Assembly: GCA_041664925.1 (NCBI GenBank)
Contig: JBAYJV010000001.1
Coordinates: forward strand, 361,183 to 425,182
Reading direction: 5' to 3'
Length of the DNA: 64,000 bases
Source: Minisyncoccota bacterium
Lineage (GTDB): Bacteria > Patescibacteriota > Minisyncoccia > JBAYJV01
Under the pieces are notes generated by a model that had not been told where the DNA came from, did not search any database, and saw nothing but the letters and a program-made list of their open reading frames with translations. Shown here one piece after another: positions 13,300 to 63,311 of this stretch (the first letter of the stretch is position 1; every line of letters begins with the position of its first letter). A program made the position numbers and the translations under genes.

Positions 13300-15075
13300 T
13301 TATTGAGGATTGGTGCTTGTCGGTTGTTCTTGAGGGGCTGAAGGAGTGACTGGAGTTGTTGTCGGAGGAGTTGTTGGGGCGGCTGGAGTCGTTGTTGCTA
13401 CAGGGAAAAGGCTAGGTGATTGGTAATATGACCAAAAGCCTTTCTTTAAAATCTGATTACCGTCTTTATCGTACACTTCTTGCCATAAAACTGTCTTAAA
13501 TGAATCTTCTTCGGCGTTTCTTTCAAAAACAGTTGGTCCTTTAATCTTTACAGTTCTTCCTTCGTCTTTACCATACATCTGAAAAGTTAGTTTATTACCC
13601 ACAATTTCTCTTTGGATTAAAACATATCCAGAAGTGTTATTGATAAACCTTAAATCAGGATGGGGCGGGTAAATAGTCGCATCAAATCCCTGAGGATTAT
13701 AATAACTTACTGGAAAAGAGTGGGGATAGCGCTCCGTGATTTCTAGGCCTGAATTAACAGCAGCCCTAAACATGGTAGTTGATACTTGGCAAATGCCACC
13801 GCCATACTCAGGAATCAATTGATTGTTTTTAATAACTAAACCGGGCAAATATCCTTCTGCGCTGGTAATATCTCCGAGGATAGTATTGAAAGAAAATTCT
13901 TCTTGGGGCTTGATTAAATATTCATCAAATTTTGAAGAACCAACCCGAATATTATTAACACGGCTCAAGGACGAACCAGAATAATCCGAAGTCCCTTCGC
14001 CGATTAGTTTTTCAATTCCCAAATTACCAAGGGTATTTTTGCTAATTTTAGCAGGAGTAGTTTTTGCGATTAAATTAATCTGTGGGACTCCGCCGAAAAT
14101 ATCTTTTTTAATTTGAGAGGCGCTATCTTCTATTAAAAGTTCGATCCCAGGAACACTCTCCTTGTTTATAGTCAAAACACCGTCTTTAAAAATTAGTCTT
14201 GCATCTTGGGGGAGTCGATTAACTTCAGGAACGATATTAAGAAGGTAATTAGCAATCAAAGATTCGTCTAAATCTAAGCCAAGAATTTTATTATTTTTAT
14301 CTAATTGGTCATAAACAGGAACAAATTTGAACCAAGAAGCCAACAAGTCTTTCTCTATAGACCAAGTTTTATTCTCGAAGGATAGAAGATAAGGGGCGCC
14401 GCTTAGTAGTTCAGAGGCTTTTTTCATCGCCAAATCAGTTTCGTCGTCTTTAATTTCGGGAAGTTGGGCGGTAATCATAAGCTTGTAATCGGAAAATGGC
14501 TTTAAATATGACGCTTTTGACTCAACAGCCCTCATTAAATCATTCCAATTTGGCTGTCTTCCTGATTTAGATTGAATTAGTTCAATAGAACTATTTTTAT
14601 AAATGAGCGAAGCATTTTGAGTCTCTTTAATTTCGTCTCCAAAATTAATCTTTGTAAAAATCTTTAATACATTATTATTCCAGCTTATTTTAAGAGGTAA
14701 ATTGTAACCGCCTAAAAGTGCCTTAAACTGCTGAAAAATATTGCGGAAAAATCCATGATTTTTTCCAATCAATGATGCTGTTTTGATGGTACCTTCGTTG
14801 TCGAAAGAGAATCCCAAGGATTCCCATGAAGTAGCAATATTTTTTTCTCTTAGTTTTAGATCTATTTTCTGAGATAACCATTTATTCTCATTTTTTTCCA
14901 GAATTACCTGTGTTTCTTTTGTTGTTTTTCCGCCAACATCAATGCCAGCTATCCTTATTCCAGAAACAAGATGATTTTTATTAAACAAAAAAAGGGCGTT
15001 TACACAAACACCAATAACAAGAAAAACGACCAATAATACTATTGGAAAAATTTTAAACGAAAACTTCTTTTTCAT
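13300..15075 (-). CDS. VanW-family protein with N-terminal membrane anchor and Pro/Thr-rich C-terminal tail
   Basis: YGGGICQVSTTMFRAAVNSG matches the conserved VanW GGG(V/I)CQVS(T/S)T motif. Confidence 0.6.
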   Translation of the reverse strand: MKKKFSFKIFPIVLLVVFLVIGVCVNALFLFNKNHLVSGIRIAGIDVGGKTTKETQVILEKNENKWLSQKIDLKLREKNIATSWESLGFSFDNEGTIKTASLIGKNHGFFRNIFQQFKALLGGYNLPLKISWNNNVLKIFTKINFGDEIKETQNASLIYKNSSIELIQSKSGRQPNWNDLMRAVESKASYLKPFSDYKLMITAQLPEIKDDETDLAMKKASELLSGAPYLLSFENKTWSIEKDLLASWFKFVPVYDQLDKNNKILGLDLDESLIANYLLNIVPEVNRLPQDARLIFKDGVLTINKESVPGIELLIEDSASQIKKDIFGGVPQINLIAKTTPAKISKNTLGNLGIEKLIGEGTSDYSGSSLSRVNNIRVGSSKFDEYLIKPQEEFSFNTILGDITSAEGYLPGLVIKNNQLIPEYGGGICQVSTTMFRAAVNSGLEITERYPHSFPVSYYNPQGFDATIYPPHPDLRFINNTSGYVLIQREIVGNKLTFQMYGKDEGRTVKIKGPTVFERNAEEDSFKTVLWQEVYDKDGNQILKKGFWSYYQSPSLFPVATTTPAAPTTPPTTTPVTPSAPQEQPTSTNPQ

Positions 15076-16384: not shown

Positions 16385-16500
16385 GAAAACCGAAACAAAT
16401 CATAATTTTCAAAATTCAAAATCTCAAACACTTTGTCATTAAATATTCGAATTTAGATATTGTTTCGAATTTCGGATTTAGAACTTCGAATTTAAACGGT
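16365..16500. repeat. intergenic repeat element copy A (homologous to 31141-31282): AAACCCGAAGCA...CCGAAACAA...TTCAAAA...3x TTCGAATTT
   Basis: Shares multiple 8-12 nt blocks in the same order with copy B. TTCGAA palindromic hexamers at 16446, 16464 and 16485 (spacing 18 and 21 bp). Confidence 0.6.
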
Positions 16501-18624
16501 TGGCCATTTCTCAATCATTATAAATTTTTCCTTGTTTTTAATAGGCAGTGCTTGATAAATTTGTTCGGTGATGAATGGGATGAACGGATGAAGGAGCTTG
16601 ATAGAATCGAAAAGAACGTAAAGTAAAATACTCTGAGTTTTAATTTTTATCTCTTCTGAGGGCGGATTAAAGACTTTGTCCTTTGATTTTTCTATATAAG
16701 TGTCGCAGAAGTCATGCCAGAAAAAATTATAAAGAGTTTCGGTAGCCTTATTAAACCTAAACTTTTCTACATATAAACTTACCGACTTAATAGTGTTTTT
16801 AAGCTGGTCGATAATAGCTTTATCGTCTTCATCTAAATCAGTTTGGACTAATTTTTTTTCAAAATCAGCATCAATCTGCGGAGGATTATTTAATAGAATA
16901 AATCTAGTAGCATTCCATATTTTATTGCAAAATTTTTGACCCATTACAACAGAATCTTCATTAAATCTAATAGATTGGTTTGTGCCGGTAAGCCAAAGAA
17001 GTCCAAAACGAGTAGCATCAGCTCCGTATTTTTCAATAAGATCAAGCGGATCAATACCTGTGCCTAGGGATTTAGACATTCTGCGACCATCTTTTGTGAG
17101 CACAACTGGATGGATATAAACATTTTTAAAAGGTTCTTTTCCCATAAATTCTATGCCAGAAAAAATCATTCGCGTTATCCACAAATAAAGAATTTCAGGG
17201 GCACTTGTCACCAAATCGGTTGGATAAAACTCTCCAAGATCGTCTTGTGGAGTTAAGCATTTTTTGTCATTGGCGATACTTTTGCATTTTTGGGGCCATC
17301 CAAGAATTGCAAAGGGCCAAAGGGCCGAAGAAAACCAAGTATCTAAGACATCTTCAGAGTTTTTTATTGGAAGTTCGTGTCCCCACCAAATCTGGCGAGA
17401 AATACACCAATCACGAATATTTTCTAGCCAGTTAAAATAAGGTTTTTCCCATCTTTTTGGGTAAAACCTAATTTTTCCATCCCTAACAGCTTTAATCGCT
17501 AAAGGCGCGAGCTTGTTCATCTTCAAAAACCACTGAGAAGATGTCAGTGGTTCAATGTAGGCGTTACAGCGATAACAATGAGATACGCTGTGGGTGTGTT
17601 TTTCAATTTTTTCTAGAAGATTTTCTTTTTTGAGTTGTTCAAGAACTTTTTCGCGCGCTTCAATAGTTTTTAAATCTTTAAAATCCTTACCAACCTCTTC
17701 TGTCATTCGTCCAAATTCATTGATAATTTTTACAGAAGAAAGACTGTGACGTTCTGCTATTTCAAAGTCTATCAAAGAATGGGCAGGGGTTACCTTAACA
17801 GCGCCGGTGCCAAAATCTTTATCTATAATTTTATCTGCTATTAAAGGAATTTCTCTTCCGATAATAGGAAGAACCAAGGTTTTGCCAATTAACTTTTTAT
17901 AACGCTTGTCGCTTGGATTGACCGCAACGGCAGTGTCGCCAAGCATTGTTTCTGGTCTGGTTGTGGCTACTACCACATAATTATCAGAGTCTTTTAGGGA
18001 ATATTTAATATACCAGAGATTGCCTTCCTCTTCGCTATATTCAACTTCAAGATCAGATAGGGCAGTAGAACAGCGAGGACACCAGTTAACCAATCTTTGT
18101 CCTTGATATATCCAACCTAGTTTTTGATAATGATCGAAAGCGGTTTTTACAGCTTCTTTATAATTTTCATCCAAAGTAAAACGACTTCGTGTCCAGTCTA
18201 CAGAAATTCCTAGTTTTTTAAATTGACCTAAAATAATATTACCATATTGTTCTTTCCATTCCCAAACCTTGTTAACAAATAACGATCTTCCAAGGTCTTT
18301 CCTTTTTATATTTTCCTTGGCAAGCTTTTTTTCCACGACATTTTGGGTTGCAATTCCCGCGTGATCAGTTCCCGGGACCCAAAGTACGCGAAATCCTTCC
18401 ATGCGTTTTTTTCTTACGATAACATCAACAAGAGCATTTTCTAGGGCATGCCCCATATGAAGATTGCCAGTAATATTTGGGGGAGCCATAACTGCCGTAA
18501 AAGCTTTGCCATTATTATCTTTTCTGGTATTTTCTGGGCTAAAAAAACCTGAGATTTCCCAATCATGGTAAATTTTTTCTTCAGTTTCTTTAGGCTGGTA
18601 CTTTTTGTCGAAAGAAGCATCCAT
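16492..18624 (-). CDS. valS: valyl-tRNA synthetase (short form, lacks the C-terminal coiled-coil extension)
   Basis: PPNITGNLHMGHAL (class I HIGH region, ValRS-type), KMSKS loop, editing domain region. Confidence 0.8.
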   Translation of the reverse strand: MDASFDKKYQPKETEEKIYHDWEISGFFSPENTRKDNNGKAFTAVMAPPNITGNLHMGHALENALVDVIVRKKRMEGFRVLWVPGTDHAGIATQNVVEKKLAKENIKRKDLGRSLFVNKVWEWKEQYGNIILGQFKKLGISVDWTRSRFTLDENYKEAVKTAFDHYQKLGWIYQGQRLVNWCPRCSTALSDLEVEYSEEEGNLWYIKYSLKDSDNYVVVATTRPETMLGDTAVAVNPSDKRYKKLIGKTLVLPIIGREIPLIADKIIDKDFGTGAVKVTPAHSLIDFEIAERHSLSSVKIINEFGRMTEEVGKDFKDLKTIEAREKVLEQLKKENLLEKIEKHTHSVSHCYRCNAYIEPLTSSQWFLKMNKLAPLAIKAVRDGKIRFYPKRWEKPYFNWLENIRDWCISRQIWWGHELPIKNSEDVLDTWFSSALWPFAILGWPQKCKSIANDKKCLTPQDDLGEFYPTDLVTSAPEILYLWITRMIFSGIEFMGKEPFKNVYIHPVVLTKDGRRMSKSLGTGIDPLDLIEKYGADATRFGLLWLTGTNQSIRFNEDSVVMGQKFCNKIWNATRFILLNNPPQIDADFEKKLVQTDLDEDDKAIIDQLKNTIKSVSLYVEKFRFNKATETLYNFFWHDFCDTYIEKSKDKVFNPPSEEIKIKTQSILLYVLFDSIKLLHPFIPFITEQIYQALPIKNKEKFIMIEKWPTV

Positions 18625-18662: not shown

Positions 18663-19733
18663 TTAATTTATGACAAGATTTGGATTTACTTCCAAATATT
18701 TCCAGTTATTTTTTGATTTTGATATTATCTCAGAATTGAAATAAGCTGCTAAGGCGATGATTGATGCGTTATCGCCACAATACCTTTTTTGAGGCAAGTA
18801 AATGGTTTGTTCAAGATTAATCTTACCTATAGCATCTCTCAGCGCTTGATTAGCAAGGACACCGCCTCCTAAGAATATACTTTTTGGATTGAATTCTATG
18901 ATTGCAGATTTTAGTTTTGCAATCAAAGTATCTATAACAGATTGCTGGAAACTAGCAGCTAAGTTTTTAATGGTAATATCGTCAATTTTTTTCTGGCCTT
19001 TGTTATTTTTTTGAATTTCTCTGACCTTATATAAAACAGCGGTTTTTAGACCAGCAAAGGAAAAATTATAATTACCAGAATTTATCATTGGTCTTGGAAA
19101 GTCAAAAGTTCGTGGATTGCCATCTTTTGCAATTTTTTCAATAATTGGTCCACCGGGGTAGCCTAGACCGAGCAATCGAGCTACTTTATCAAATGCTTCT
19201 CCTGCGGCATCGTCCAGAGTTTCTCCCAAAAGTTTATAACTACCAATCTTATTTATTAAGATTAATTCTGTGTGTCCCCCAGAAACAATAAGACCAATAG
19301 CAGGGAACAAGGGCAATTTAACGTCTATTTTCTGATCCAAGCTCAATAAGCCAGAGTACAAATGACCGTCCAAATGATTTGTTCCAATAATCGGCTTTTG
19401 ATATTTATACGCAAGCGCTTTAGCAAAAGCGACGCCCACAAGTAAGCACGGCATTAATCCCGGTCCATGCGTTATAGCAATTAAATCAACCATCTTCATT
19501 ATTTTTTCTATGTCCCTTTTTGTTTCCTTAAATAGAATCGGCAGATTCTTTATATGTTCTCTCGCTGCCAAACCTGGAACAACTCCGCCAAAGGGCTCAT
19601 GGGTTTTTATTTGAGATGCAACCTTATCTGCTAAGATATTAATCTTTAGAGATCCTCTTGTTCCTTGTTTATTAAATTCAACCAAAGCTATGGCTGTTTC
19701 ATCACACGATGTTTCTATGCCTAAAATATTCAT
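18663..19733 (-). CDS. tsaD: tRNA N6-adenosine threonylcarbamoyltransferase TsaD (Kae1/YgjD family)
   Basis: MNILGIETSCDETAIAL N-terminus and ...HLDGHLYS... metal-binding histidines. ORF track starts 33 nt earlier, at 19766. Confidence 0.85.
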   Translation of the reverse strand: MNILGIETSCDETAIALVEFNKQGTRGSLKINILADKVASQIKTHEPFGGVVPGLAAREHIKNLPILFKETKRDIEKIMKMVDLIAITHGPGLMPCLLVGVAFAKALAYKYQKPIIGTNHLDGHLYSGLLSLDQKIDVKLPLFPAIGLIVSGGHTELILINKIGSYKLLGETLDDAAGEAFDKVARLLGLGYPGGPIIEKIAKDGNPRTFDFPRPMINSGNYNFSFAGLKTAVLYKVREIQKNNKGQKKIDDITIKNLAASFQQSVIDTLIAKLKSAIIEFNPKSIFLGGGVLANQALRDAIGKINLEQTIYLPQKRYCGDNASIIALAAYFNSEIISKSKNNWKYLEVNPNLVIN

Positions 19734-19845
19734 GTTTATACTGAATTTTAAACTTAAATAACGCAAAAATCAAATATAAACACAAAATCTCGCTATTAAA
19801 CGAGATTTTGATTTTTGTCAGATAAATTTCAATTGAGCGGCAGAG

Positions 19846-28754: not shown

Positions 28755-29213
28755 TTATTTTTTCGTATCAGTAACAACATCTTTTGTTCCTTCTCTATCT
28801 TTTTCTTTTGAGATACCTTCTGGTTTAACTTTATTATTTCCTGTTTTTTTTCCTGAACCTTGTTCGAGCCTGAGTCTCTTTTGAATTTCCTTTTCTGTCT
28901 TTTTTCTTACCCAGTAAAGTTTTGCCTTGCTGACACGTTTCGGCTTTTTAACAATTTCAATCTTTTTAATGCTTGGCGAATATAGTGGAAAAATCTTTTC
29001 AACACCTATACCAGAAATTACTCGACGTACCGTAAAAGTAGCACCTGTTTCATCTCCGTGCTTTCTAGCTATGACAAGACCTTCAAAAGATTGAATTCTT
29101 TTTTTGTCTCCCTCTTCGATTTCTTGAAAAACTTTTACAAGATCTCCAGCTCTAAAGCCTAGTAAATCTTGTCTTTTTTGATTCGTAAGTAATTTATTTA
29201 CTGAATTTGTCAT
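28755..29213 (-). CDS. rplS: 50S ribosomal protein L19 with Lys-rich C-terminal extension
   Basis: FRAGDLVKV...EGLVIARKHGD...FTVRRVISGIGVE core L19 motifs. Confidence 0.85.
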   Translation of the reverse strand: MTNSVNKLLTNQKRQDLLGFRAGDLVKVFQEIEEGDKKRIQSFEGLVIARKHGDETGATFTVRRVISGIGVEKIFPLYSPSIKKIEIVKKPKRVSKAKLYWVRKKTEKEIQKRLRLEQGSGKKTGNNKVKPEGISKEKDREGTKDVVTDTKK

Positions 29214-30207
29214 GTTTTAAATTATTTAAAAAACTAGTCAAACTAACTGGCAATGGAGAGTAAAATTGATAATACTCGTTCTTGAATTTAAATGCAAGCT
29301 TTTCGGCGTGTAAAAACATTCTTTTAATTTTTACTACTGGTAATTTTTTAGTCGTGTAAAGAGGATCGCCAACGATCGGATAATTCATGGAAAACAATTG
29401 AGCTCTTAACTGATGAGTGCGACCGGTTTCTGGAAATAATGAAAGCAATGTATAGGGGATATTATCGCGATCAATTAGTTTTTTTTCAACCCGATAATAA
29501 GTAATAGCTTTTCTAGCCTTTAAATCTCCTCGCGGCTTTACTAAACTAACTCTTGCATTTGGTTTTTTATGAGAACGAGAAAGGTAACTCTCGATCTTTC
29601 CTTCTTTTTCCCTAAAATGTCCAAATACCAAAGCTTTATAGGTTTTTTTAACTTGTCTTTCCTTGAATAGTGATTTTAATTCAAGAAAAGAATTTTGATT
29701 TTTAGCAACTAGGAGAAGTCCTGATGTTTCCTTATCTAGCCTATGAACAAGACCTGGTCTTAATGGATGTTCTCCGACATTTTTTAACTCTGGGCAATGA
29801 ACTAAAAGCCCACCAACTATTGTCTTGATATTAGGATTACGATCAGGATGAACCAAAATGCCTGCTTGCTTATGAAGAACTAAAAAATCTTTATTTTCAA
29901 AAGCGATCCATAGTTTTACTGAACTATCTTGTGAAATTTTAACCTGCTTTTTTTCTTGAACAGCAATTTTTATTTTATCACCTCTTTTTAAAATATATCT
30001 TGATTCTGTTTTATGATCGTTGACACTAACAGATCCTTGCTTAATCATTTCTTGGAGCCAATTTCGCGACAACTCAGGAAACTGTTTTTTTAAAAACACA
30101 TCTATTCTTAATCTGTCATCGTTTTTAATTAAAAAAAATTTTATCAGCATGTTTTGTGGGGCAAGATGGACTCGAACCATCGACCCCGACTTTAATGTCG
30201 TAGACAA
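29194..30207 (-). CDS. RluA-family 23S rRNA pseudouridine synthase (RluD-like, S4 domain + catalytic domain)
   Basis: HRLDKETSGLLLVAKN catalytic Asp motif. The first 19 codons of the ORF overlap a partial tRNA-Ile copy, so the true start is probably the ATG at 30150 (MLIKFF...). Confidence 0.8.
   Translation of the reverse strand: MSTTLKSGSMVRVHLAPQNMLIKFFLIKNDDRLRIDVFLKKQFPELSRNWLQEMIKQGSVSVNDHKTESRYILKRGDKIKIAVQEKKQVKISQDSSVKLWIAFENKDFLVLHKQAGILVHPDRNPNIKTIVGGLLVHCPELKNVGEHPLRPGLVHRLDKETSGLLLVAKNQNSFLELKSLFKERQVKKTYKALVFGHFREKEGKIESYLSRSHKKPNARVSLVKPRGDLKARKAITYYRVEKKLIDRDNIPYTLLSLFPETGRTHQLRAQLFSMNYPIVGDPLYTTKKLPVVKIKRMFLHAEKLAFKFKNEYYQFYSPLPVSLTSFLNNLKHDKFSK
30152..30194 (-). repeat. 43-nt exact partial duplicate of the 3' half of tRNA-Ile(TAT)
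   Basis: TTTTGTGGGGCAAGATGGACTCGAACCATCGACCCCGACTTTA is identical to 30253-30295. There is no upstream 5' half or acceptor partner, so it is not a functional tRNA. Confidence 0.7.
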
Positions 30208-30257
30208 AAGTCGGGTACTATGAGGCTAAGCGAATATTATTAAAAACCTTGTTTTTG

Positions 30258-30330
30258 TGGGGCAAGATGGACTCGAACCATCGACCCCGACTTTATAAGA
30301 GTCGTGCTCTACCGACTGAGCTATTGCCCC
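30258..30330 (-). tRNA. tRNA-Ile with UAU anticodon
   Basis: GGGGCAA-TA-GCTC-AGTCGGTA-GAGC-A-CGACT-CTTATAA-AGTCG-GGGTC-GATGG-TTCGAGT-CCATC-TTGCCCC-A. Loop C32 U33 U34 A35 U36 A37 A38. Confidence 0.75.
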
Positions 30331-30341
30331 TTACAAGGACA

Positions 30342-31028
30342 TTAAATTTCTATGTGTTTTATTTCTGGTGGCTGCTCTTCTTTTTGTTTTGTGCCTTTCT
30401 CTCTTTTTTCATAAGGCCTACCAAATGGATCCAGAATTTCACTAAATGGAATTTTTATCATTCCTTGGGGTGTTCTAAAAATTGCTATTTCGCTATCACA
30501 ATATATTAATTCACCGTTTATAATACCAAGTTCGGTTCTGTGACCCCTTGATCCGACAGATGGCCAATCTGGGAATATTTCTGTTATTGTCGGTTGTTCT
30601 GTTTTGGAAACAATTAACTGTAATTCTTCTGGAGATAATTCTTTCGCTGATGGTGGCAAAATCGGGGGATTCTCTGGAGACTCTTCTATAGGATATTTTT
30701 CTCCTTTTTTCAACAAAATACACGAAGCAACAACTCCTTTTCTCTTTAATATATCAAGCATCTGTCTCAATTCTTCTTCGTGATATGGGTTATAATTTTT
30801 AACAAGAATTTCTGGTCTATCTTCGGAGAGCACATCGATTTCAATATTGCCCTTATCGAAAGTATCTATAATTATCGTAATTCTCCCATCTTCGCAAGTG
30901 TTTTGTGATTCCAATTTACAGCCCAGACTTTCAAATGCCTCAGCAATAGATCGTGCAGTACTTTCTGTTATTTTTTCTCGAGAGAGTATTTTCTCTCCTT
31001 CTTTTGGTGAAAATTCCCCAGAATGCAT
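30342..31028 (-). CDS. hypothetical protein (228 aa)
   Basis: Clean ORF; no recognisable family motif. Confidence 0.3.
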   Translation of the reverse strand: MHSGEFSPKEGEKILSREKITESTARSIAEAFESLGCKLESQNTCEDGRITIIIDTFDKGNIEIDVLSEDRPEILVKNYNPYHEEELRQMLDILKRKGVVASCILLKKGEKYPIEESPENPPILPPSAKELSPEELQLIVSKTEQPTITEIFPDWPSVGSRGHRTELGIINGELIYCDSEIAIFRTPQGMIKIPFSEILDPFGRPYEKREKGTKQKEEQPPEIKHIEI

Positions 31029-31061
31029 ATATTTTTAATATTAAATGATATTGCGAATTTG

Positions 31062-31135
31062 TGGGCTCGACAGGACTTGAACCTGTGACCTTCTCAATGT
31101 CACTGAGACGCTCTAGCCAACTGAGCTACGAGCCC
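31062..31135 (-). tRNA. tRNA-Val (anticodon GAC)
   Basis: GGGCTCG acceptor, anticodon loop GTGACAT, T-loop TTCAAGT. Confidence 0.75.
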
Positions 31136-31282: not shown

Positions 31283-31286
31283 TATG

Positions 31287-31360
31287 CGTCCCCAGCTGGG
31301 CTTGAACCAGCAACCTACAGCTTAGAAGGCTGTCGCTCTATCCAATTGAGCTATAGGGAC
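31287..31360 (-). tRNA. tRNA-Arg (anticodon TCT)
   Basis: GTCCCTA acceptor, anticodon loop CTTCTAA, T-loop TTCAAGC. Confidence 0.75.
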
Positions 31361-37472: not shown

Positions 37473-38384
37473 TTATTTTCTTGTCTTGTCGTGAAATTTT
37501 TGATGAATTTCTTTTAATCCCTTATCGGTAACATGGGTATAAATTTGAGTTGTGGATACATTGGCATGACCCAATAGGGCTTGAACTGATCTCAGGTCTG
37601 CTCCTCCTGCCAATAAATCGGTAGCAAATGAATGTCTTAAGGTATGCGGAGTAATCTGTTTTACTATTCCGGCCCTAATTGTCCATTTTTGCACAATTCT
37701 TTGAACTGATCTGGGGGTAAGTCTTAAGTTGTCTCGTTTTCCAACTTTTTTAATGCGGGCAAATAGGGACGGATCAACATCTGTGCGTTTTTCTAAGTAC
37801 TTCTTTATGGCTTCTTTGGCTTTTTCAGAAAGAAAAACAATTCTGATTTTATCCCCCTTACCCTTAATGCTAAAATCTGTTTTTTCTAGGTTAATTTTTT
37901 CTCTATTTAAACTACAAAGCTCTGATACCCGAAGGCCAGTGCTAAAAAGAGTTTCTAAAATTGCTTTATCCCTGAGATTAGTTATTTTGACACGGTCTTT
38001 TTCTTTCTCTAATGGCGTTGCCAATAATCTCTCAAGCTCGTTACCATCTAAAATTTCAATTTCGTGCTGACCACTTTTTGCGAGTTCTATTTTTTCTGGA
38101 GAAAGCGAAGTAATATTATTTTTAGAAAAGTAAAGCAAGAATCCTCGAAGAGCAATTAGGTGATAATTTTGAGTAATCTTTTTAAGTTGACCGTTATTCA
38201 GGCGATTAAGGTAAAGACGATATTCTCGAACTAAATCGCCAGTAATCTGCTCTGGTTTTTCTATTTTTGCCCACTCCAAGAAACGATTTAAGTATCTTCT
38301 ATAATTATCTAAGGTTTTTTGACTAGAACCTCTCTCAATTTCAAGGTAGTCAAGGTAGCGCTTAATAAGATCATTTATGGTCAT
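37473..38384 (-). CDS. xerC: tyrosine site-specific recombinase, XerC/XerD-like
   Basis: N-terminal SAM-like core-binding domain. C-terminal catalytic motifs R...HTLRHSFATDLLAGGADLRSVQALLGHANVSTTQIYTHV (His-x-x-Arg, catalytic Tyr). Confidence 0.8.
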   Translation of the reverse strand: MTINDLIKRYLDYLEIERGSSQKTLDNYRRYLNRFLEWAKIEKPEQITGDLVREYRLYLNRLNNGQLKKITQNYHLIALRGFLLYFSKNNITSLSPEKIELAKSGQHEIEILDGNELERLLATPLEKEKDRVKITNLRDKAILETLFSTGLRVSELCSLNREKINLEKTDFSIKGKGDKIRIVFLSEKAKEAIKKYLEKRTDVDPSLFARIKKVGKRDNLRLTPRSVQRIVQKWTIRAGIVKQITPHTLRHSFATDLLAGGADLRSVQALLGHANVSTTQIYTHVTDKGLKEIHQKFHDKTRK

Positions 38385-54950: not shown

Positions 54951-57887
54951 TCAAGGAACACTAATTGATTTATTAGCGTTCTGACTTACGGTTGGCCAAT
55001 GGAAACTTAAAATATCTATATTCAACCAGAAGCGGCAACTAGCGGAAATATTTTTACTTCCTCCACTTGAATAAGAGTGAGAAAGACCATCACCTTGAGC
55101 TGCTTTGTAAAGAGAGTCTTTCTTTGAGCCATCTTTCCAATCAATTTGATTTGTTGTTGGCATGTCAAGTCTTAATTTTGTTCCTCGATAAGCAATGGGT
55201 CCAACTTTAAAGTTAATTCCTTGAATAATTGGTTCGCCCAAAATACTTATATAAATATTTGGCACAGAACAAATGCCGATAGATGCTGGCCTTATATCTT
55301 GGTCATAGAGCTTCACGGTATGGGGAGGAGACGAGACGGGTAATGGATTAAGACTTCCAATGCTGCAATCTTCCCAATTATTTGCATTAAGTAAGGTACA
55401 GACAGCAGAAACTAAATCAGTCGGACAGGCGAAATTTCCATTAATTTCGACAGTAATCAATAATTTTTTGACAATACTGATTAGATCTAAATGAATAATA
55501 TCTTGGATGAGATTTTGATTGATAACAATTTTAAAAAGTCTATGAAGAATGTCGTAACGAATTCCAGTTAATTTCTCAGCTGCCTTGGCAGTAAACTCTA
55601 CAATCAAATCCTTTACTTTAGTTTCCGCATAACTCTTAAGGCTTTCTAGGGATATGTTTTTTGTTTCGGTTAAAAATTTAGCGAAACGAGCAATTTCTGC
55701 AATTAATTTTGGATCAATACCCAATGATTCTTCGATAAAGGGAGCAACAAAATCAGTAGCTATTTGAGTTAGAATTGCTTTTCCGCGAGATTCAAGATAG
55801 CTTTTGAAAGAACTAATAAATTGAGAAGGATTGAAGTTCAAGAAACCATTAAGGTTTCCACCGGTACTTATGGCGTAATTAGCAAAATCAATAATATACT
55901 TTGAAAGATCAGGGTTTATCTTTAATTCATTTTTTAGGAATGAATAGGCCTGCTGAGAAACAAATTTAACGGCGTTTTTAATAAATACCTGACTATCAAT
56001 ATCTATGGTTATTCCAGCACTGCTTAGGGAAGCAGAAAATCCAGTTCCATCAACTTCAACAGATAAATCTGCTAAACTAAGGCCCTTGTCAAAGAGATAA
56101 TATTTTAGGAGACGGATAGTTTTTTCAACTAACTGACTATCAATTGCTTTTTGAATAGTATTCCCATCAACATCCGGAACATTTAATTTGACGATATCTA
56201 TGAGCTTATTGACTGCCTCAGCGGCAATATCGTAAGCAACGTTCTGAATTATTTCAATTCCTTTCTGAAGAGTAATATTATTAGCAGATGCATAAGATTG
56301 CCAAAGAGACTGAATGTCGGCTTTGGTTTTTTGAATAATGTCTTTTAGACTTAGACTCCTTGAATCAACCAAATACCTGACAAAACCAACAACATTGTTG
56401 ATTTCCTGATCAGATAGGCCGTTTTCTCTCTTAAATCTATTAATTGTGTCTGAAGCCAAACTATTTACTGCTTGAATAATTTGACTTTTGGTTGTACTAG
56501 CAAAAGTATCAATACTTAGGCCAGTTTTTATAAAATTAACTAATTTTTCAGCTTGAACAAGTTTTTGAAGCACAGGCGAGGTACTTTCCTGAGCGTACTG
56601 GAGAAGAAAAGTACCAATACTAGCAGGGGAGGAAAGAATATTGCCAAGTTCTTGTCCGTTTTTAACTAGATATGCTGAGAAATTACCGAGTTCTTGAGCA
56701 ACGCCGGGGTCAAGGTTTAAAGTAAGTGAAAAATTAACTATAAACTCTTTTACAACATTAGCAGCTACTCCTTTGAGGGCGCTAACGCCTAAATCTATGA
56801 ATTTATTGAGATTATCAGCAAAATAATCTGGATCACTAACAGCTTGTTGAATATTGATGCCCTTTGCCTGAAGCCAGAAATAAAAATCAACTAATCCCTG
56901 AACCTTTTTAGCAATGTCTTCACCAAAAAGTCCAACGATAACTTCACCTGAGAAATCTTTTGCAAAACTTCCTAAAAGAGCGGAAATAATAGAGCCAGTA
57001 ATATTACACAAATCTAACTTAAGAGCTTCCTGATCGCCTTGGTCAGTGGGATTTTCTTTCCATCCTTTCTCGGTACACTGATAATTCTCTCCGGGTCGTG
57101 GATCTTTTTTTGGTTCTCCGCATGACCATTGGTAATACCCAGAAGAGTTTTTTTGGCAGGTAGAATTGTTATAGTAACGGCAATATTCTGTGCCATTTTC
57201 TTCTATAATTCTAGCTAGATCACAAGTGTCTGAAGGGGATCCCTGAGATAGATAGCAATTAAATGAACTATCTATTCCGAGAAGATTTTCAACGCTAAAA
57301 TTTATGACTGGCTCTGTAATGGTGCAGGCGCTTTTGACTTTTACCCAGTAACCTCTAAAAGGCTCAAGGTTGGCCGCCGGGACAAGCATTTTATAATCAG
57401 ACCCAGTCGCTTCAAAAAGCCAATTAACGTCTAATTGGCAAGTTCCTTTAAGTTGGTTCCAGTTATAGTTGGTGGTAGACGAGACAAGATTCCATCCAGC
57501 CTTAAGCGTTGTGTTTTTTTCACTCCTATTTCCTTGGCCGGTAGATCCAATATCAAGACTGCAATCTTCGTCAACCCTTACCCAATAGGCATTTAGCGGT
57601 TTTAAGGTGGTTACTTTTTGATATTTGAAAAGAGTAGAATTCCACTCCCATGGACCAGAAGCAATTCTGCAACCAGAAAGGTATGTTGATGATAAAGTTT
57701 CATCGGAAGGAGAAATCAAATTCCATCCCTTTTTAAGACTAATTGTTCCTTGGGGATCCGGAACAACTCCTGCTATAGCTTTTTTAGGTGACAAAAAAGA
57801 GCCTGCATAAATGAGGCCTGTTTGTGAGATAATAAGCGATATTAAAACAAAAATAATCGTTATTTTCTTTGTTAATCCAATGTGCAT
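54951..57887 (-). CDS. large secreted protein (978 aa) with N-terminal internal repeats; unknown function
   Basis: Signal/anchor MHIGLTKKITIIFVLISLIISQTGLIYA. Repeated module LKKGWNLISPS / LKAGWNLVSST. Long helical middle region. Confidence 0.35.
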   Translation of the reverse strand: MHIGLTKKITIIFVLISLIISQTGLIYAGSFLSPKKAIAGVVPDPQGTISLKKGWNLISPSDETLSSTYLSGCRIASGPWEWNSTLFKYQKVTTLKPLNAYWVRVDEDCSLDIGSTGQGNRSEKNTTLKAGWNLVSSTTNYNWNQLKGTCQLDVNWLFEATGSDYKMLVPAANLEPFRGYWVKVKSACTITEPVINFSVENLLGIDSSFNCYLSQGSPSDTCDLARIIEENGTEYCRYYNNSTCQKNSSGYYQWSCGEPKKDPRPGENYQCTEKGWKENPTDQGDQEALKLDLCNITGSIISALLGSFAKDFSGEVIVGLFGEDIAKKVQGLVDFYFWLQAKGINIQQAVSDPDYFADNLNKFIDLGVSALKGVAANVVKEFIVNFSLTLNLDPGVAQELGNFSAYLVKNGQELGNILSSPASIGTFLLQYAQESTSPVLQKLVQAEKLVNFIKTGLSIDTFASTTKSQIIQAVNSLASDTINRFKRENGLSDQEINNVVGFVRYLVDSRSLSLKDIIQKTKADIQSLWQSYASANNITLQKGIEIIQNVAYDIAAEAVNKLIDIVKLNVPDVDGNTIQKAIDSQLVEKTIRLLKYYLFDKGLSLADLSVEVDGTGFSASLSSAGITIDIDSQVFIKNAVKFVSQQAYSFLKNELKINPDLSKYIIDFANYAISTGGNLNGFLNFNPSQFISSFKSYLESRGKAILTQIATDFVAPFIEESLGIDPKLIAEIARFAKFLTETKNISLESLKSYAETKVKDLIVEFTAKAAEKLTGIRYDILHRLFKIVINQNLIQDIIHLDLISIVKKLLITVEINGNFACPTDLVSAVCTLLNANNWEDCSIGSLNPLPVSSPPHTVKLYDQDIRPASIGICSVPNIYISILGEPIIQGINFKVGPIAYRGTKLRLDMPTTNQIDWKDGSKKDSLYKAAQGDGLSHSYSSGGSKNISASCRFWLNIDILSFHWPTVSQNANKSISVP

Positions 57888-59747: not shown

Positions 59748-60463
59748 TGAAAAAGATCTTTCGCAAACTTACAAAAACTTTCATAATCTTGGTTGTTTGC
59801 TTTATTGTTTTTGTTGTTTTGGTAGTTATTTTTGTCCATCGCGATGAAACTACAGGAAAAATCACAATTTCATTTAAATCAAATGCCAATAAAATTTCTG
59901 ACAACGGTTTTAGTGATATTCTTTCAAGAGAGGCAAGTTTAGCAAGCTTAACTCAAGTTGATTGGGCCGAGGCATATAACCAAGCATTAAATAAACAAAA
60001 TACACAGATTGCTGATACTAAAAACAATCAAACAGGAAATCTTAAAGAAACAATTTCAACGCAAAAAGGGCCGAATAGCAATCAAAAGGTATACGAAAAA
60101 TTTGTAAAATATCTCCAAGCATCAAATGTTCAACTTGATGGATCTCAAAATCCGCTAAATTTGGCAATTCAGTATCGTGATAATGATCAAAAAGACAAGA
60201 TTAATGGGCTGATCACTAATCTAGATAAAAAAATAGCCAGCATTGAGACTATTGTTCCGCCGGAGGAGGCAGTGGGTTATCATCTCGCAAAATTAAGACT
60301 TTTAAGAGAAATAAGCGCTATTTTAAGCAAAATTAAGGCCTCAGACAAAGGAGTGGCGCTGGAGCAAATTATTCCAGAAGAAGAGTTTTCTTATTTAGCT
60401 GGACTTGATATTATCCTTCAAAAATACTTAACTTACTTTTTTTACTCAAAGATAAGTGGTTAA
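59747..60463 (+). CDS. membrane-anchored hypothetical protein (238 aa)
   Basis: N-terminal TM IILVVCFIVFVVLVVIFV. Start overlaps the previous stop (ATGA). Confidence 0.3.
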   Translation: MKKIFRKLTKTFIILVVCFIVFVVLVVIFVHRDETTGKITISFKSNANKISDNGFSDILSREASLASLTQVDWAEAYNQALNKQNTQIADTKNNQTGNLKETISTQKGPNSNQKVYEKFVKYLQASNVQLDGSQNPLNLAIQYRDNDQKDKINGLITNLDKKIASIETIVPPEEAVGYHLAKLRLLREISAILSKIKASDKGVALEQIIPEEEFSYLAGLDIILQKYLTYFFYSKISG

Positions 60464-63311
60464 AAAAGCCATAAAATTTACTGGTTTTGGATTTTTCTTA
60501 GCGGCACTAGTTCTTTTTGCGCTGAATATTTTTGCTACAAAAACAAATGCTACTACCGAAATAAACAAAGATGAAATTCTTGATAATCATTTTGATATGG
60601 ACATTCCTGGTTTTAAAATCTGCCAAGAACTTCGTCGCTTGACAGAAGATTTAATAGATCCATCAGTAACTCCTCCCTATGAGGTTTTTAATTTTGGGGT
60701 CAATGAAAATACAGATGATAGTGAAGGGGCTTTGGATGGGAGCGACACAGATTCTGTAACGACCCAAGACGGCAGTGTTTTTCAAAAATGGTTTCTTGAT
60801 GCGTGCATTATGGATGGCTACATCACAGAAGTAAGACATGTAGCGACAATTCATAATTTTGATGTGACTGACTCCATTTTTAGCGATGAAAATGCAATCA
60901 AAGAACTCAATCTAGGTGAACTTTTCGAGGAAGCATTTATGCAAGTTACTAAAGAAGGTGTACTTGATGATAAGAGTGGTCTTAGTGATCAGGATCAAAA
61001 AAACTTACAAGAGGCAAGTCTAAAAGATTTCTTCCTTTCTCTTAAAGACTCAAACGAACAATTCATGACGGATTTAATGACAGCCATATCAGAAAAACAG
61101 AGAATTGACCTCGAAGAACTTCAAAAATATGAATTAGCGAAAATAGAAAAAGCGAGAGAAGATGTTAATAAACTTACTTATGAAGTTTATCGAGAACTTG
61201 TAGATGAGTCTTTAATTTACCAAGATACTCTCCAAGGCGAGCTTGTTCGCGGCTTAGGACTTAAGGAAATTATTCCGCAAGGAGAAACTGCCGACAGTTG
61301 TCCTTTTGGTGTTTTGATTCCAAATACTTCGGATGGCGCTCAATGTATGATAATAAAGAAAGAGGGCAGAGTCATTAGCAATGTTGATAATTTCATTAAT
61401 GAAGAATCGCTTCAAAAAGCAAGAGATTTTCTAATGTGCTATTTGGCTCCTTGGAGGCATTTCCCTGTTGGAGAAGATTATTATTTTGCGGCATCAGCAG
61501 CGGAAAGAACTGCAATAAAAAATAAGAACAATCAAAAATTTCGTGATAATACCGACCCTGATTTTAAATATATCGACGAAGCAATGAGAACTGCTAATAG
61601 TGGAGTTCCTTTTTGTGGAACACAGGCAGTTGCAGAAATAATAAGGACTGATCCTGATATCAAGAAGCCATTTATTTTGGCTAATTATCCTACAAGCACT
61701 TATCCTCTTTTTAAACAGGAGCTTTACGATGGCAGCAAAAATATTTGCCAAGTTGCCGAAGAAAATGGTTCAGAACCCAATTTAGCAAGACTATGCAGAG
61801 AGGCAATAAGAAAAGTAATGGATAATAAGAGTGGTAGTGGCGACGATAGAAGTTGTGACACACAAAATATTTGCGAAAAAACAAGAATAAAATTAGACGA
61901 TCCAAATACTGGTTTCCCATATGACTATATTAACGCAAGTGGACAAACAGAGACTGCAAAAGGAAGACCGGATATTTTTGATACTGATTTTGAAGGATAT
62001 GTGAAATATTTATGCCCGAGTGATCAGATGAAAGAAAGATTAAAAAAAGATCTTTTATTAGAGATGGCTCGAAAATACCAGTTTATTTACGATGCTCCTC
62101 CGGAGCATTGGTATTATACTTCCGGTACTGGTGATGATAAAACCAGATGTGGTTTGATTTTAGGGAACTTAGGTTACGATGTTGAGGGAATCATAGGAGA
62201 GATTTCAAGTGATAAACTATCTTCCCAAACATTACTTTCTTATCAAAAATATCAAGAAAAAGTCTGGAAGTCAGATCTAAAAATCGCTCTAGCTTACAGA
62301 CCAGATAATGACGATACCGATTATGCTACATATAGCGGCAATCCTTACAAAAATAGCTTTGATGGCGTAACTTCATTCTTGTCGTCTGCGATGGATAAAA
62401 TTAAAAATGACTACAAATCATCAAGAACCGCTGAATATTTAGCAGGAGAAGGGCTAAGATCAGATAAATATTTGGTCGGATTTTCTGATTATCAAACAAA
62501 TAAATACTTCTTTATAAACACGGAAAACATTATTTCTCCGGCGCTATTCTTAAAAGACAAAGTCATGGCGGCTACTCAAGCGCAGTTTGATTTAGCGCAA
62601 ATGGCGTTCAAACAGCAGCCCGAAGGATCTGGAGAAACAACAATATGGACTTGTCCGACACCTTATGTAACGGGCGATGACCTTAAAAAGGATGATTTCC
62701 CAACAGCTGGTCCGTACAATAGTCTAAAAGGAATTTGCGCTGACCAAAACAAGGGATTGAAGAGTGGCTGGTATTTGATTGATTTAACTCCGGACGAGTC
62801 AGATCCAAGCAAAAAAAATTATGATTGTCGCTGGCCCCAGTTTAATAATATAACCTGTGAAGTTTTTGGTTACACAACGACCCAAGCTATAAAAGAATAC
62901 AAGATGCCCAATGAATTACCGGCGCCATGGGAAGATGCAAGCGAGTATATGAAAATACCTGATGAGTATAAGAAATGGTTTGAAGGTGATATTACAGTTC
63001 AAGCAGGAACAAGTAGCAATGGAACACCAATTAAAGTTACAAAAACTGGCGAGGAACTGGGACTAACAAAATCACCACCAGCGTTTGACATAGCTGAATA
63101 CGGGAAGGACCCGTATGACAATTGGAGCGAGCAATATCCAGAAATCTATGGCAAGGCTTACGGAAACGATTATATGGCTCCTGCAACAAGCTCAGATTAT
63201 TATATTAACAAATGGTACAAGGGCATTACTCAGCTTTATGAAAAACCGATGTCAGAAATTTTAAGAACTTGGTTTAGACAAGAAGCGACAACAACACCAA
63301 CGGGTCCGTAA
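60456..63311 (+). CDS. large secreted protein (951 aa), Cys-containing, unknown function
   Basis: N-terminal anchor/signal FTGFGFFLAALVLFALNIFATKTNA. 8-bp overlap with the upstream gene. Confidence 0.35.
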   Translation: MVKKAIKFTGFGFFLAALVLFALNIFATKTNATTEINKDEILDNHFDMDIPGFKICQELRRLTEDLIDPSVTPPYEVFNFGVNENTDDSEGALDGSDTDSVTTQDGSVFQKWFLDACIMDGYITEVRHVATIHNFDVTDSIFSDENAIKELNLGELFEEAFMQVTKEGVLDDKSGLSDQDQKNLQEASLKDFFLSLKDSNEQFMTDLMTAISEKQRIDLEELQKYELAKIEKAREDVNKLTYEVYRELVDESLIYQDTLQGELVRGLGLKEIIPQGETADSCPFGVLIPNTSDGAQCMIIKKEGRVISNVDNFINEESLQKARDFLMCYLAPWRHFPVGEDYYFAASAAERTAIKNKNNQKFRDNTDPDFKYIDEAMRTANSGVPFCGTQAVAEIIRTDPDIKKPFILANYPTSTYPLFKQELYDGSKNICQVAEENGSEPNLARLCREAIRKVMDNKSGSGDDRSCDTQNICEKTRIKLDDPNTGFPYDYINASGQTETAKGRPDIFDTDFEGYVKYLCPSDQMKERLKKDLLLEMARKYQFIYDAPPEHWYYTSGTGDDKTRCGLILGNLGYDVEGIIGEISSDKLSSQTLLSYQKYQEKVWKSDLKIALAYRPDNDDTDYATYSGNPYKNSFDGVTSFLSSAMDKIKNDYKSSRTAEYLAGEGLRSDKYLVGFSDYQTNKYFFINTENIISPALFLKDKVMAATQAQFDLAQMAFKQQPEGSGETTIWTCPTPYVTGDDLKKDDFPTAGPYNSLKGICADQNKGLKSGWYLIDLTPDESDPSKKNYDCRWPQFNNITCEVFGYTTTQAIKEYKMPNELPAPWEDASEYMKIPDEYKKWFEGDITVQAGTSSNGTPIKVTKTGEELGLTKSPPAFDIAEYGKDPYDNWSEQYPEIYGKAYGNDYMAPATSSDYYINKWYKGITQLYEKPMSEILRTWFRQEATTTPTGP

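Follow-up and report, generated by a model that had tools for sequence, protein, structure and literature searches.

The reading of AUA as isoleucine without misreading of AUG is a classic decoding problem, and nearly all bacteria rely for it on lysidine, which TilS forms on a tRNA-Ile2 with a CAU anticodon. In eukaryotes the cytoplasmic tRNA-Ile(UAU) bears pseudouridine at positions 34 and 36, and tRNA-Ile(UAU) genes have also been reported in Nanoarchaeum and Korarchaeum. Here we describe such a gene in the Paceibacteria, a group that ranks among the largest bacterial radiations. A stretch of 64,000 nucleotides from a Minisyncoccota bacterium (GenBank assembly GCA_041664925.1, contig JBAYJV010000001.1, positions 361,183 to 425,182), hereafter the window, carries a tRNA-Ile gene whose encoded anticodon is UAU and, beside it, a 43-nt copy of the gene's own 3' half and trailer. 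In bacteria, TAT tRNAs were counted in 19 species by tRNADB-CE in 2014 (PMC4013482), and a 2026 preprint still treats bacterial UAU tRNA-Ile as 'rare cases'. Among the handful of bacteria with a U-starting AUA anticodon, Mycoplasma mobile is the only case studied biochemically: experiments have shown that tilS is absent, that U34 is unmodified and that the isoleucyl-tRNA synthetase (IleRS) has Arg865 in place of a conserved Trp (PMC3575796). Bifidobacterium and Neorickettsia, discussed in the same work, likewise have a UAU tRNA-Ile, a eukaryote-type IleRS and no tilS, and some bacteria carry both the LAU (lysidine-bearing) and the UAU systems (Taniguchi 2013, PMC3575796).

Judged by its sequence, the UAU-anticodon tRNA-Ile gene is genuine and functional. 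Its minus-strand sequence is GGGGCAATAGCTCAGTCGGTAGAGCACGACTCTTATAAAGTCGGGGTCGATGGTTCGAGTCCATCTTGCCCCA. ARAGORN calls a tRNA-Ile with anticodon tat at 30257-30330, and the Rfam model RF00005 matches in full (model positions 1-71 at 30258-30330 on the minus strand) with 74.4 bits against a threshold of 29, the E-value being 1.9e-14 in a search of the whole window and 7.5e-17 in a search of 246 nt. A preliminary description of this DNA, made from the letters alone, had drawn the same cloverleaf, and every part of it is correct: the acceptor GGGGCAA/TTGCCCC, the D stem GCTC/GAGC, the anticodon stem CGACT/AGTCG, the loop CTTATAA, the T arm GATGG-TTCGAGT-CCATC and the discriminator A. Its claim of a tRNA-Ile with a UAU anticodon stands as well. 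The minus strand and the 43-nt partial duplicate were absent from it. Antisense to the gene (30257-30330, plus strand) there is a sub-threshold Rfam match to the Plastid-ycf2 5'UTR, with 31.5 bits against a gathering score of 65.7. Reverse-complemented, the consensus of that family reads like a CAU-anticodon tRNA, which we take to resemble plastid trnI-CAU, and the match was rejected as a separate element and regarded as a tRNA-shaped echo.

The comparison with relatives places this gene in a wider setting. Syntenic loci were collected through homologs of S1 and FtsH, and the resulting set of nine contigs represents eight Paceibacteria lineages, including metagenome-assembled genomes labelled Portnoybacteria and Azambacteria. 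In every contig sampled a tRNA-Ile(tat) stands beside a tRNA-Val(gac) at the syntenic site (loci L022-L025, L028, L029, L031, L032, L033, L035-L037, L039, L040, L041 and L042, of which L041 is the Azambacteria-labelled GCA_016234725.1 and L042 a 553-kb JGI contig), the pair lying close to rluD-rplS and/or S1-ftsH while FtsH identity falls from 98% to about 63%. In six aligned alleles all 126 stem cells are paired (100%), and 13 of the 21 stem pairs have changed on both sides in a compensatory manner; the observed values are matched by none of 500 shuffles, and with the 3' partners slid along, 25-43% of cells pair. The UAU anticodon and A37 do not vary in any of the eight lineages, T34 being encoded throughout, and the loop CTTATAA is invariant across the six aligned alleles; the two alleles furthest from the rest, which have U38, also retain UAU and A37. 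Because synteny persists to 63% FtsH identity and the stems covary by compensation, this is a selected, working tRNA gene, and by these comparative measures it is kept by selection across Paceibacteria.

Isoleucine identity elements give a mixed picture. A73, A37 and U12-A23 are invariant and A38 is found in six of eight alleles, whereas C4-G69 occurs in five of the six aligned alleles, the window allele having G4-C69, and pair 29-41 is A-U or U-A, not C-G. The Escherichia coli set that Nureki reportedly defined in 1994 comprises A73, A37, A38, U12-A23, C4-G69 and C29-G41. Pairwise identity to the other tRNAs of the window and to E. coli and Bacillus subtilis tRNAs is 55-77% for all of them and thus uninformative for isotype.

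The breadth of the gene across a wide part of Paceibacteria is new; the gene is not the oddity of a single genome and is apparently class-wide. The preliminary description had called UAU tRNA-Ile known from only a few lineages, which is indeed how the literature treats it in bacteria, yet the gene was found in all eight lineages sampled. In the searchable literature no paper joins lysidine with Patescibacteria or the Candidate Phyla Radiation (CPR), and we found no published report of class-wide tRNA-Ile(UAU) conservation in CPR. Among GTDB representative genomes the best match to the RluD query has 41% identity and there is no close relative, and a metagenome scan returned three contigs only. 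In the Portnoybacteria-labelled loci L039 and L040 ARAGORN also calls, at 13497-13583, a tRNA-Leu with anticodon AAG (A34). To our knowledge, anticodons that start with A are very rare in bacteria apart from Arg-ACG.

In the long open reading frames (ORFs) of the window ATA makes up 400 of 17,910 codons and 24% of isoleucine codons; the codon count that the preliminary description had proposed thus gives 22.3 per 1000, and AUA is common, 'high' by the usage classes of PMC12514573. At the AUA sites of the window, 365 ortholog cells hold 54% I, 14.5% L, 13.2% V and 2.5% M. This residue profile is indistinguishable from that of AUU/AUC sites, while AUG sites hold 44% Met; FtsH alone was also compared for its AUA-site residues. 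Because AUA sites align with Ile and not with Met, AUA means isoleucine. Taken as a whole, the best explanation, in which tRNA-Ile(UAU) reads the abundant AUA codons as isoleucine and the half-copy has the origin argued for below, appears very probable.

By analogy with M. mobile, decoding would proceed through a U34, unmodified or lightly modified, that pairs with the A of AUA, a t6A (threonylcarbamoyladenosine) at position 37 that stabilises the A36-U1 end, and an IleRS that accepts the UAU anticodon. A t6A37 transferase subunit, TsaD, is encoded 11 kb from the tRNA gene; t6A is the modification to be expected at A37 in tRNAs that read ANN codons, of which this is one. Lysidine formation is chemically impossible on this tRNA, because the gene encodes T rather than C at position 34. 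We lean slightly towards tRNA-Ile(UAU) as the main or only decoder of AUA, which would make lysidine unnecessary, and a similarly slight preference falls on TilS-independence of this genome. Within the 64-kb window there is no tilS, no IleRS and no CAT-anticodon tRNA. Candidates for IleRS were set aside: the class I synthetase of 710 aa proved to be ValRS, beside which the window encodes no other class Ia enzyme, and for two ORFs of about 950 aa Pfam gave no match. A scan for the PP-loop (SGGxDS) across the window and loci L001-L032 matched only Rho. In bacteria tilS commonly sits next to ftsH; the S1-ftsH arrangement is conserved here, but at that locus, to which the comparison applies, no PF01171 (tilS) gene lies near ftsH in any relative.

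Two alternatives to this account of the gene carry very different weight. One holds that the tRNA is a pseudogene, the cargo of a mobile element or an assembly artefact, or that AUA has been reassigned, for example to Met. A mobile-element hotspot does directly adjoin the tRNA, close relatives carry one or the other of two very dissimilar alleles at this one site, and a tandem repeat could mislead assemblers; against this stand the full-length 74-bit tRNA, the synteny and covariation described above, and the same tRNA sequence in independent assemblies from JGI, ENA, NCBI and Logan, while reassignment is opposed by the alignment of AUA sites with Ile, Leu and Val instead of Met. The score as a pseudogene that the preliminary description had named as a ground for refutation is excluded by 74.4 bits, synteny and covariation, and this whole group of explanations is highly improbable. 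The other alternative is a serious contender, with a little less than an even chance: the tRNA is functional yet redundant, TilS and a tRNA-Ile2(CAU) being encoded as well, so that AUA is read by both LAU and UAU. An intermediate stage with both systems has been described for some bacteria (PMC3575796), about 98% of annotated bacterial genomes are reported to have tilS (PMC12514573), the 64-kb window is but a part of a contig that measures at least 433 kb, and a tRNA(CAT) with the exact body of the type-B allele introduced below exists in nature. For the same reason, namely that some bacteria hold LAU together with UAU, the loss of tilS does not follow automatically from a UAU gene; the preliminary description had taken such a gene to imply either that loss or a distinct wobble-modification strategy. 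Set against redundancy are the selection on the UAU gene in all eight lineages sampled, the high AUA usage, the lack of tilS adjoining ftsH in any relative, and the general observation that small CPR genomes seldom retain redundant systems. Two points weigh against tRNA-Ile(UAU) as the sole or main isoleucine-accepting reader of AUA: the possible redundancy with the lysidine system, as in some bacteria (PMC3575796), and the combination of G4-C69 and A29-U41 in the window allele, where identity for E. coli IleRS uses C4-G69 and C29-G41, although the E. coli rules may not transfer.

A broader proposition can be put forward tentatively, as possible rather than probable: that Paceibacteria as a class have abandoned TilS and lysidine and rely on a genomically encoded tRNA-Ile(UAU) for an AUA codon in heavy use. 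Were this so, discrimination between AUA and AUG would depend on adaptation of the ribosome or of IleRS, or on modification of U34 and U36, possibly to pseudouridine by the neighbouring RluA-family enzyme as in eukaryotic tRNA-Ile. What is supposed to be a rare bacterial exception would then be the norm in a sizeable part of bacterial diversity, TilS would be neither a universal antibacterial target nor a universal marker, and Paceibacteria would offer a natural system for the study of how U34 avoids wobble with G.

The second subject of this analysis is the half-copy. The two copies of the exact 43-nt repeat lie 101 nt apart; none of 100 shuffles gives such a match, a pattern search of the window finds two matches against none expected, and no other piece of a tRNA is duplicated in the window. 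Further, two independent Logan assemblies break exactly inside the repeat, as is expected of a true repeat. Scored as a tRNA, the half-copy reaches 15.4 bits against a gathering score of 29, with matches at model positions 10-63 only, and on this score and the absence of a 5' acceptor strand it was rejected as a functional tRNA gene. In the spacer between the copies stand CCCGACTTT, which is the inverted complement of the fragment's AAAGTCGGG, and a degenerate D-arm-like motif, TAGC(C)TCA. Spacer and fragment together fold into an extended anticodon-arm-like hairpin beside a T-arm hairpin, and the fold of the unit is better than that of its shuffles (z -2.2 to -3.0). Scans for promoters and terminators in the unit stayed at chance level. 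Viral scans for an attP-like copy gave no match for the unit or for the 3' end of the window's own, type-A allele, and scans with the type-B 3' end found only unrelated phage tRNAs, including an informative CAT tRNA of locus L043.

Relatives display the same unit in several states. In L028 and L029 the same type-A tRNA is followed by at least three identical units with a period of 99 nt, and across relatives the units number from one, as in the window, to at least three, with a period of 99-101 nt (window 30152-30252; L028 1-316; L029 693-980; L022 5169-5287; L031 1072-1219). The arrays of L028 and L029 were considered as CRISPR-like and rejected, the spacers within an array being identical. 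L022-L025, L031 and L032 instead have a type-B tRNA-Ile(UAU), with acceptor GGGCCAT, followed by a homologous spacer and a type-A fragment; in these strains a hairpin of 20 nt is inserted into the variable loop of the fragment, and the spacer of L031 and L032 is longer too. L031 and L032 share the window's junction of fragment, CAAAA, ATG and rluD. Distant relatives have no fragment, and in them the intact tRNA lies directly upstream of rluD. The species are 82-84% identical in the MBL gene and in the region from tRNA to rluD, and the fragment of 38+5 nt is identical in all of them save for the 20-nt insertion of the type-B strains. In L022-L025 an island follows directly after the fragment and encodes a 531-aa large serine recombinase, a helix-turn-helix (HTH) protein, an N4/N6-methyltransferase and an HNH nuclease, and at the same point L029 has an unrelated island with HTH and methyltransferase genes; the site is empty in the window, L031 and L032.

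The half-copy is probably a remnant of an ancestral type-A tRNA-Ile(UAU), namely its displaced 3' half, which has kept the original place before rluD, for it occupies the site, directly 5' of rluD, where outgroups have the intact tRNA. An insertion or recombination in the anticodon loop, with the classic geometry of a tRNA attachment (att) site, would have created the repeat, unequal crossing-over between the 43-nt repeats would vary the number of units, and the 3' end of the fragment would now serve as the insertion point for different islands. Several observations sit poorly with this origin. The repeats of the window enclose only the 58-nt spacer, with no integrase or element DNA, and the islands of relatives lie beyond the fragment and not between the repeats. 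Large serine recombinases do not create long direct repeats, and the recombinase of the relatives is of this kind. Both halves of the intact type-B tRNA are unlike the fragment, and because of this a single crossover in the anticodon loop cannot yield the type-B arrangement. Finally, perfect conservation of the fragment has a probability of about 3e-4 under neutral drift, which suggests that the fragment has some function. One form that such a function could take is a cis-element, the unit giving the rluD-rplS transcript a structured leader or a signal for processing through its anticodon-arm-like and T-arm hairpins, with rluD expression needing a tRNA-like 3' end near the start codon. The complete identity of the fragment in species about 83% identical, including strains with the other tRNA allele, is in keeping with this, as are the folding scores of the unit and the position of the rluD ATG, 7 nt past the fragment in the window (at 30150), L031 and L032, and 0-2 nt from the 3' end of tRNA-Val in L039 and L042. 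Linkage of fragment and rluD is breakable, however, since the islands of L022-L025 and L029 separate the two; moreover, in L033 and L035 the tRNA is separated from rluD by 33-107 nt, and the fragment, without a 5' acceptor strand, is not a standard substrate of RNase P or RNase Z. This cis-element reading is regarded as unlikely.

Two further observations concern the surroundings of the half-copy. In L022 (1-5261) and L024 (1-5172) the 3' end of the recombinase gene overlaps the fragment in antisense, and the island holds two further unknown ORFs. It is 100% identical between the two samples except that a 3.3-kb block is inverted, this block being bounded by inverted repeats of about 106 bp, and a 124-bp inverted repeat abuts the fragment; the island looks like an invertible restriction-modification-like cassette. 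As to rluD, its start lies near tRNA 3' ends (window 30148-30180; L039 12306-12382; L042 11893-11967), overlapping the last base of tRNA-Val in L039 and falling 2 nt past tRNA-Val in L042, which leaves no space for a Shine-Dalgarno sequence. For the rluD of the window, gene callers choose an in-frame ATG at 30180, within the T-arm copy (328 aa; L001). Two neighbouring genes were considered as the integrase of an element and rejected: the ORF downstream of the repeat is the RluD-like pseudouridine synthase, and the tyrosine recombinase at 37473-38384 is a XerC/D-type housekeeping gene found in all relatives.

The window as a whole has the look of an ordinary bacterial chromosome, with about 35% G+C. 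Its host group is Candidatus Paceibacterota/Paceibacteria within the CPR, uncultured and ultra-small, and the source assembly is metagenome-assembled. Six proteins of the window have exact counterparts recorded for 'Candidatus Paceibacterota bacterium' on a 433,204-bp contig, with accessions that ascend in order along the DNA from MFA6437011 to MFA6437040. Among the housekeeping genes are those for GyrA, ValRS, TsaD, RNase Y, ClpP, trigger factor, NusA, L19 and S1, as well as FtsH, XerC/D, PNPase, GroEL and KsgA, and the TGA codon is not reassigned. ARAGORN finds 11 tRNA genes in the window, none of the 11 with a CAT anticodon. The principal features around the tRNA-Ile(UAU) gene are collected in the table. 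Of these, the 228-aa ORF has no counterpart in L022, L028, L029, L035 or L037, whereas at the corresponding position L031 has an ORF of 224 aa and L033 one of 219 aa, both with a weak match to HTH_23; the exact 228-aa protein has no record in a large protein collection, whereas its neighbour proteins are recorded there. ValRS (16492-18624) is only 710 aa long against about 860 aa in reference models, the C-terminal extension apparently having been lost, which fits the general shortening of CPR proteins. Two very large ORFs, at 54951-57887 (978 aa) and 60456-63311 (951 aa), adjoin a TSP3-repeat protein; neither has a Pfam match at E<=1e-5, and they may be lineage-specific surface proteins.

Table. 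Coordinates of the tRNA-Ile(UAU) gene, its partial copy and nearby features in the window
Feature	Coordinates	Strand	Basis or remark
TsaD, t6A37 transferase subunit	18663..19766	-	Pfam PF00814; NCBIfam TIGR03723, 377 bits
RluD-like pseudouridine synthase (RluA family, S4 domain)	29194..30150	-	Pfam PF00849 + PF01479; NCBIfam TIGR00005; translation
Direct-repeat copy 2: displaced tRNA 3' half (tRNA positions 36-73 at 30157-30194, trailer CAAAA at 30152-30156)	30152..30194	-	
Spacer of 58 nt, from trailer of intact tRNA to fragment	30195..30252	-	about 80% homologous in L022, L029, L031
Direct-repeat copy 1: tRNA positions 36-73 and trailer CAAAA (part of intact gene)	30253..30295	-	repeat search, 100% identity
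tRNA-Ile(UAU), 73 nt, type-A allele, CCA not encoded	30258..30330	-	ARAGORN; Rfam RF00005; covariation, 6 alleles
Anticodon T34-A35-T36 (UAU) in loop C32-U33-U34-A35-U36-A37-A38	30295..30297 (reads 30297-30295)	-	sequence
ORF of 228 aa without family match, between tRNA-Val and tRNA-Ile	30342..31028	-	
tRNA-Val(GAC)	31061..31135	-	ARAGORN; neighbour of tRNA-Ile(UAU) in all lineages sampled
tRNA-Arg(UCU)	31286..31360	-	ARAGORN; first gene of Arg-Val-Ile tRNA cluster

A clue to the ancestry of the type-B allele comes from a phage. Outside the anticodon arm this allele is identical at 56 of 56 positions to a CAT-anticodon tRNA on a phage contig (L043 3423-3496; IMGVR_UViG_3300012983_000032, 219.5 kb); positions 1-26 and 44-73 are shared and the anticodon arm differs. 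The anticodon arm of the phage tRNA, by comparison with the E. coli sequence, resembles that of tRNA-Ile2(CAU), and no other tRNA of the L043 phage island matches the Paceibacteria type-B tRNA. The mosaic suggests an exchange of the anticodon arm. In the model of Taniguchi, TAT genes derive from Ile2(CAT) genes (PMC3575796), and the identity hints at agreement with that derivation, though by a swapped arm and not by a single C-to-T change.

Compared with the systems described to date, the locus combines familiar traits in an unfamiliar distribution. It shares with the canonical tRNA-Ile2(CAU) and TilS the task of reading AUA as Ile and the loop context C32-U33-N34-A35-U36-A37-A38, and differs in that position 34 is T instead of C throughout the eight lineages. 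Its likeness to the tRNA-Ile2(UAU) of M. mobile is closer, comprising a genomic UAU that would read AUA as Ile, an AT-rich reduced genome, frequent AUA and an available A37; unlike the M. mobile tRNA, which is isolated within Mollicutes, the present one is conserved across a broad CPR class. With Bifidobacterium and Neorickettsia it has in common a bacterial UAU tRNA, which there replaces lysidine in reliance on an IleRS of eukaryote/archaeal type. The U-starting AUA anticodon likewise recalls eukaryotic tRNA-Ile(UAU), and an RluA-family pseudouridine synthase is a conserved neighbour here; however, the gene has no intron, and an action of the RluD-like neighbour on the tRNA is speculative, RluD orthologs normally modifying helix 69 of 23S rRNA. 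More broadly, the half-copy resembles tRNA-gene att sites in that the repeat, from position 36 in the anticodon loop onwards, extends 5 nt beyond the 3' end, and in that islands occupy the site in relatives, empty and occupied versions both existing, but it departs from them in that only 58 nt separate the repeats, no integrase is present and the units are tandemly amplified. The mobile-element biology of ultra-small genomes is poorly described, and the half-tRNA unit offers a small, well-defined case in such genomes of a tRNA gene as a recombination hotspot.

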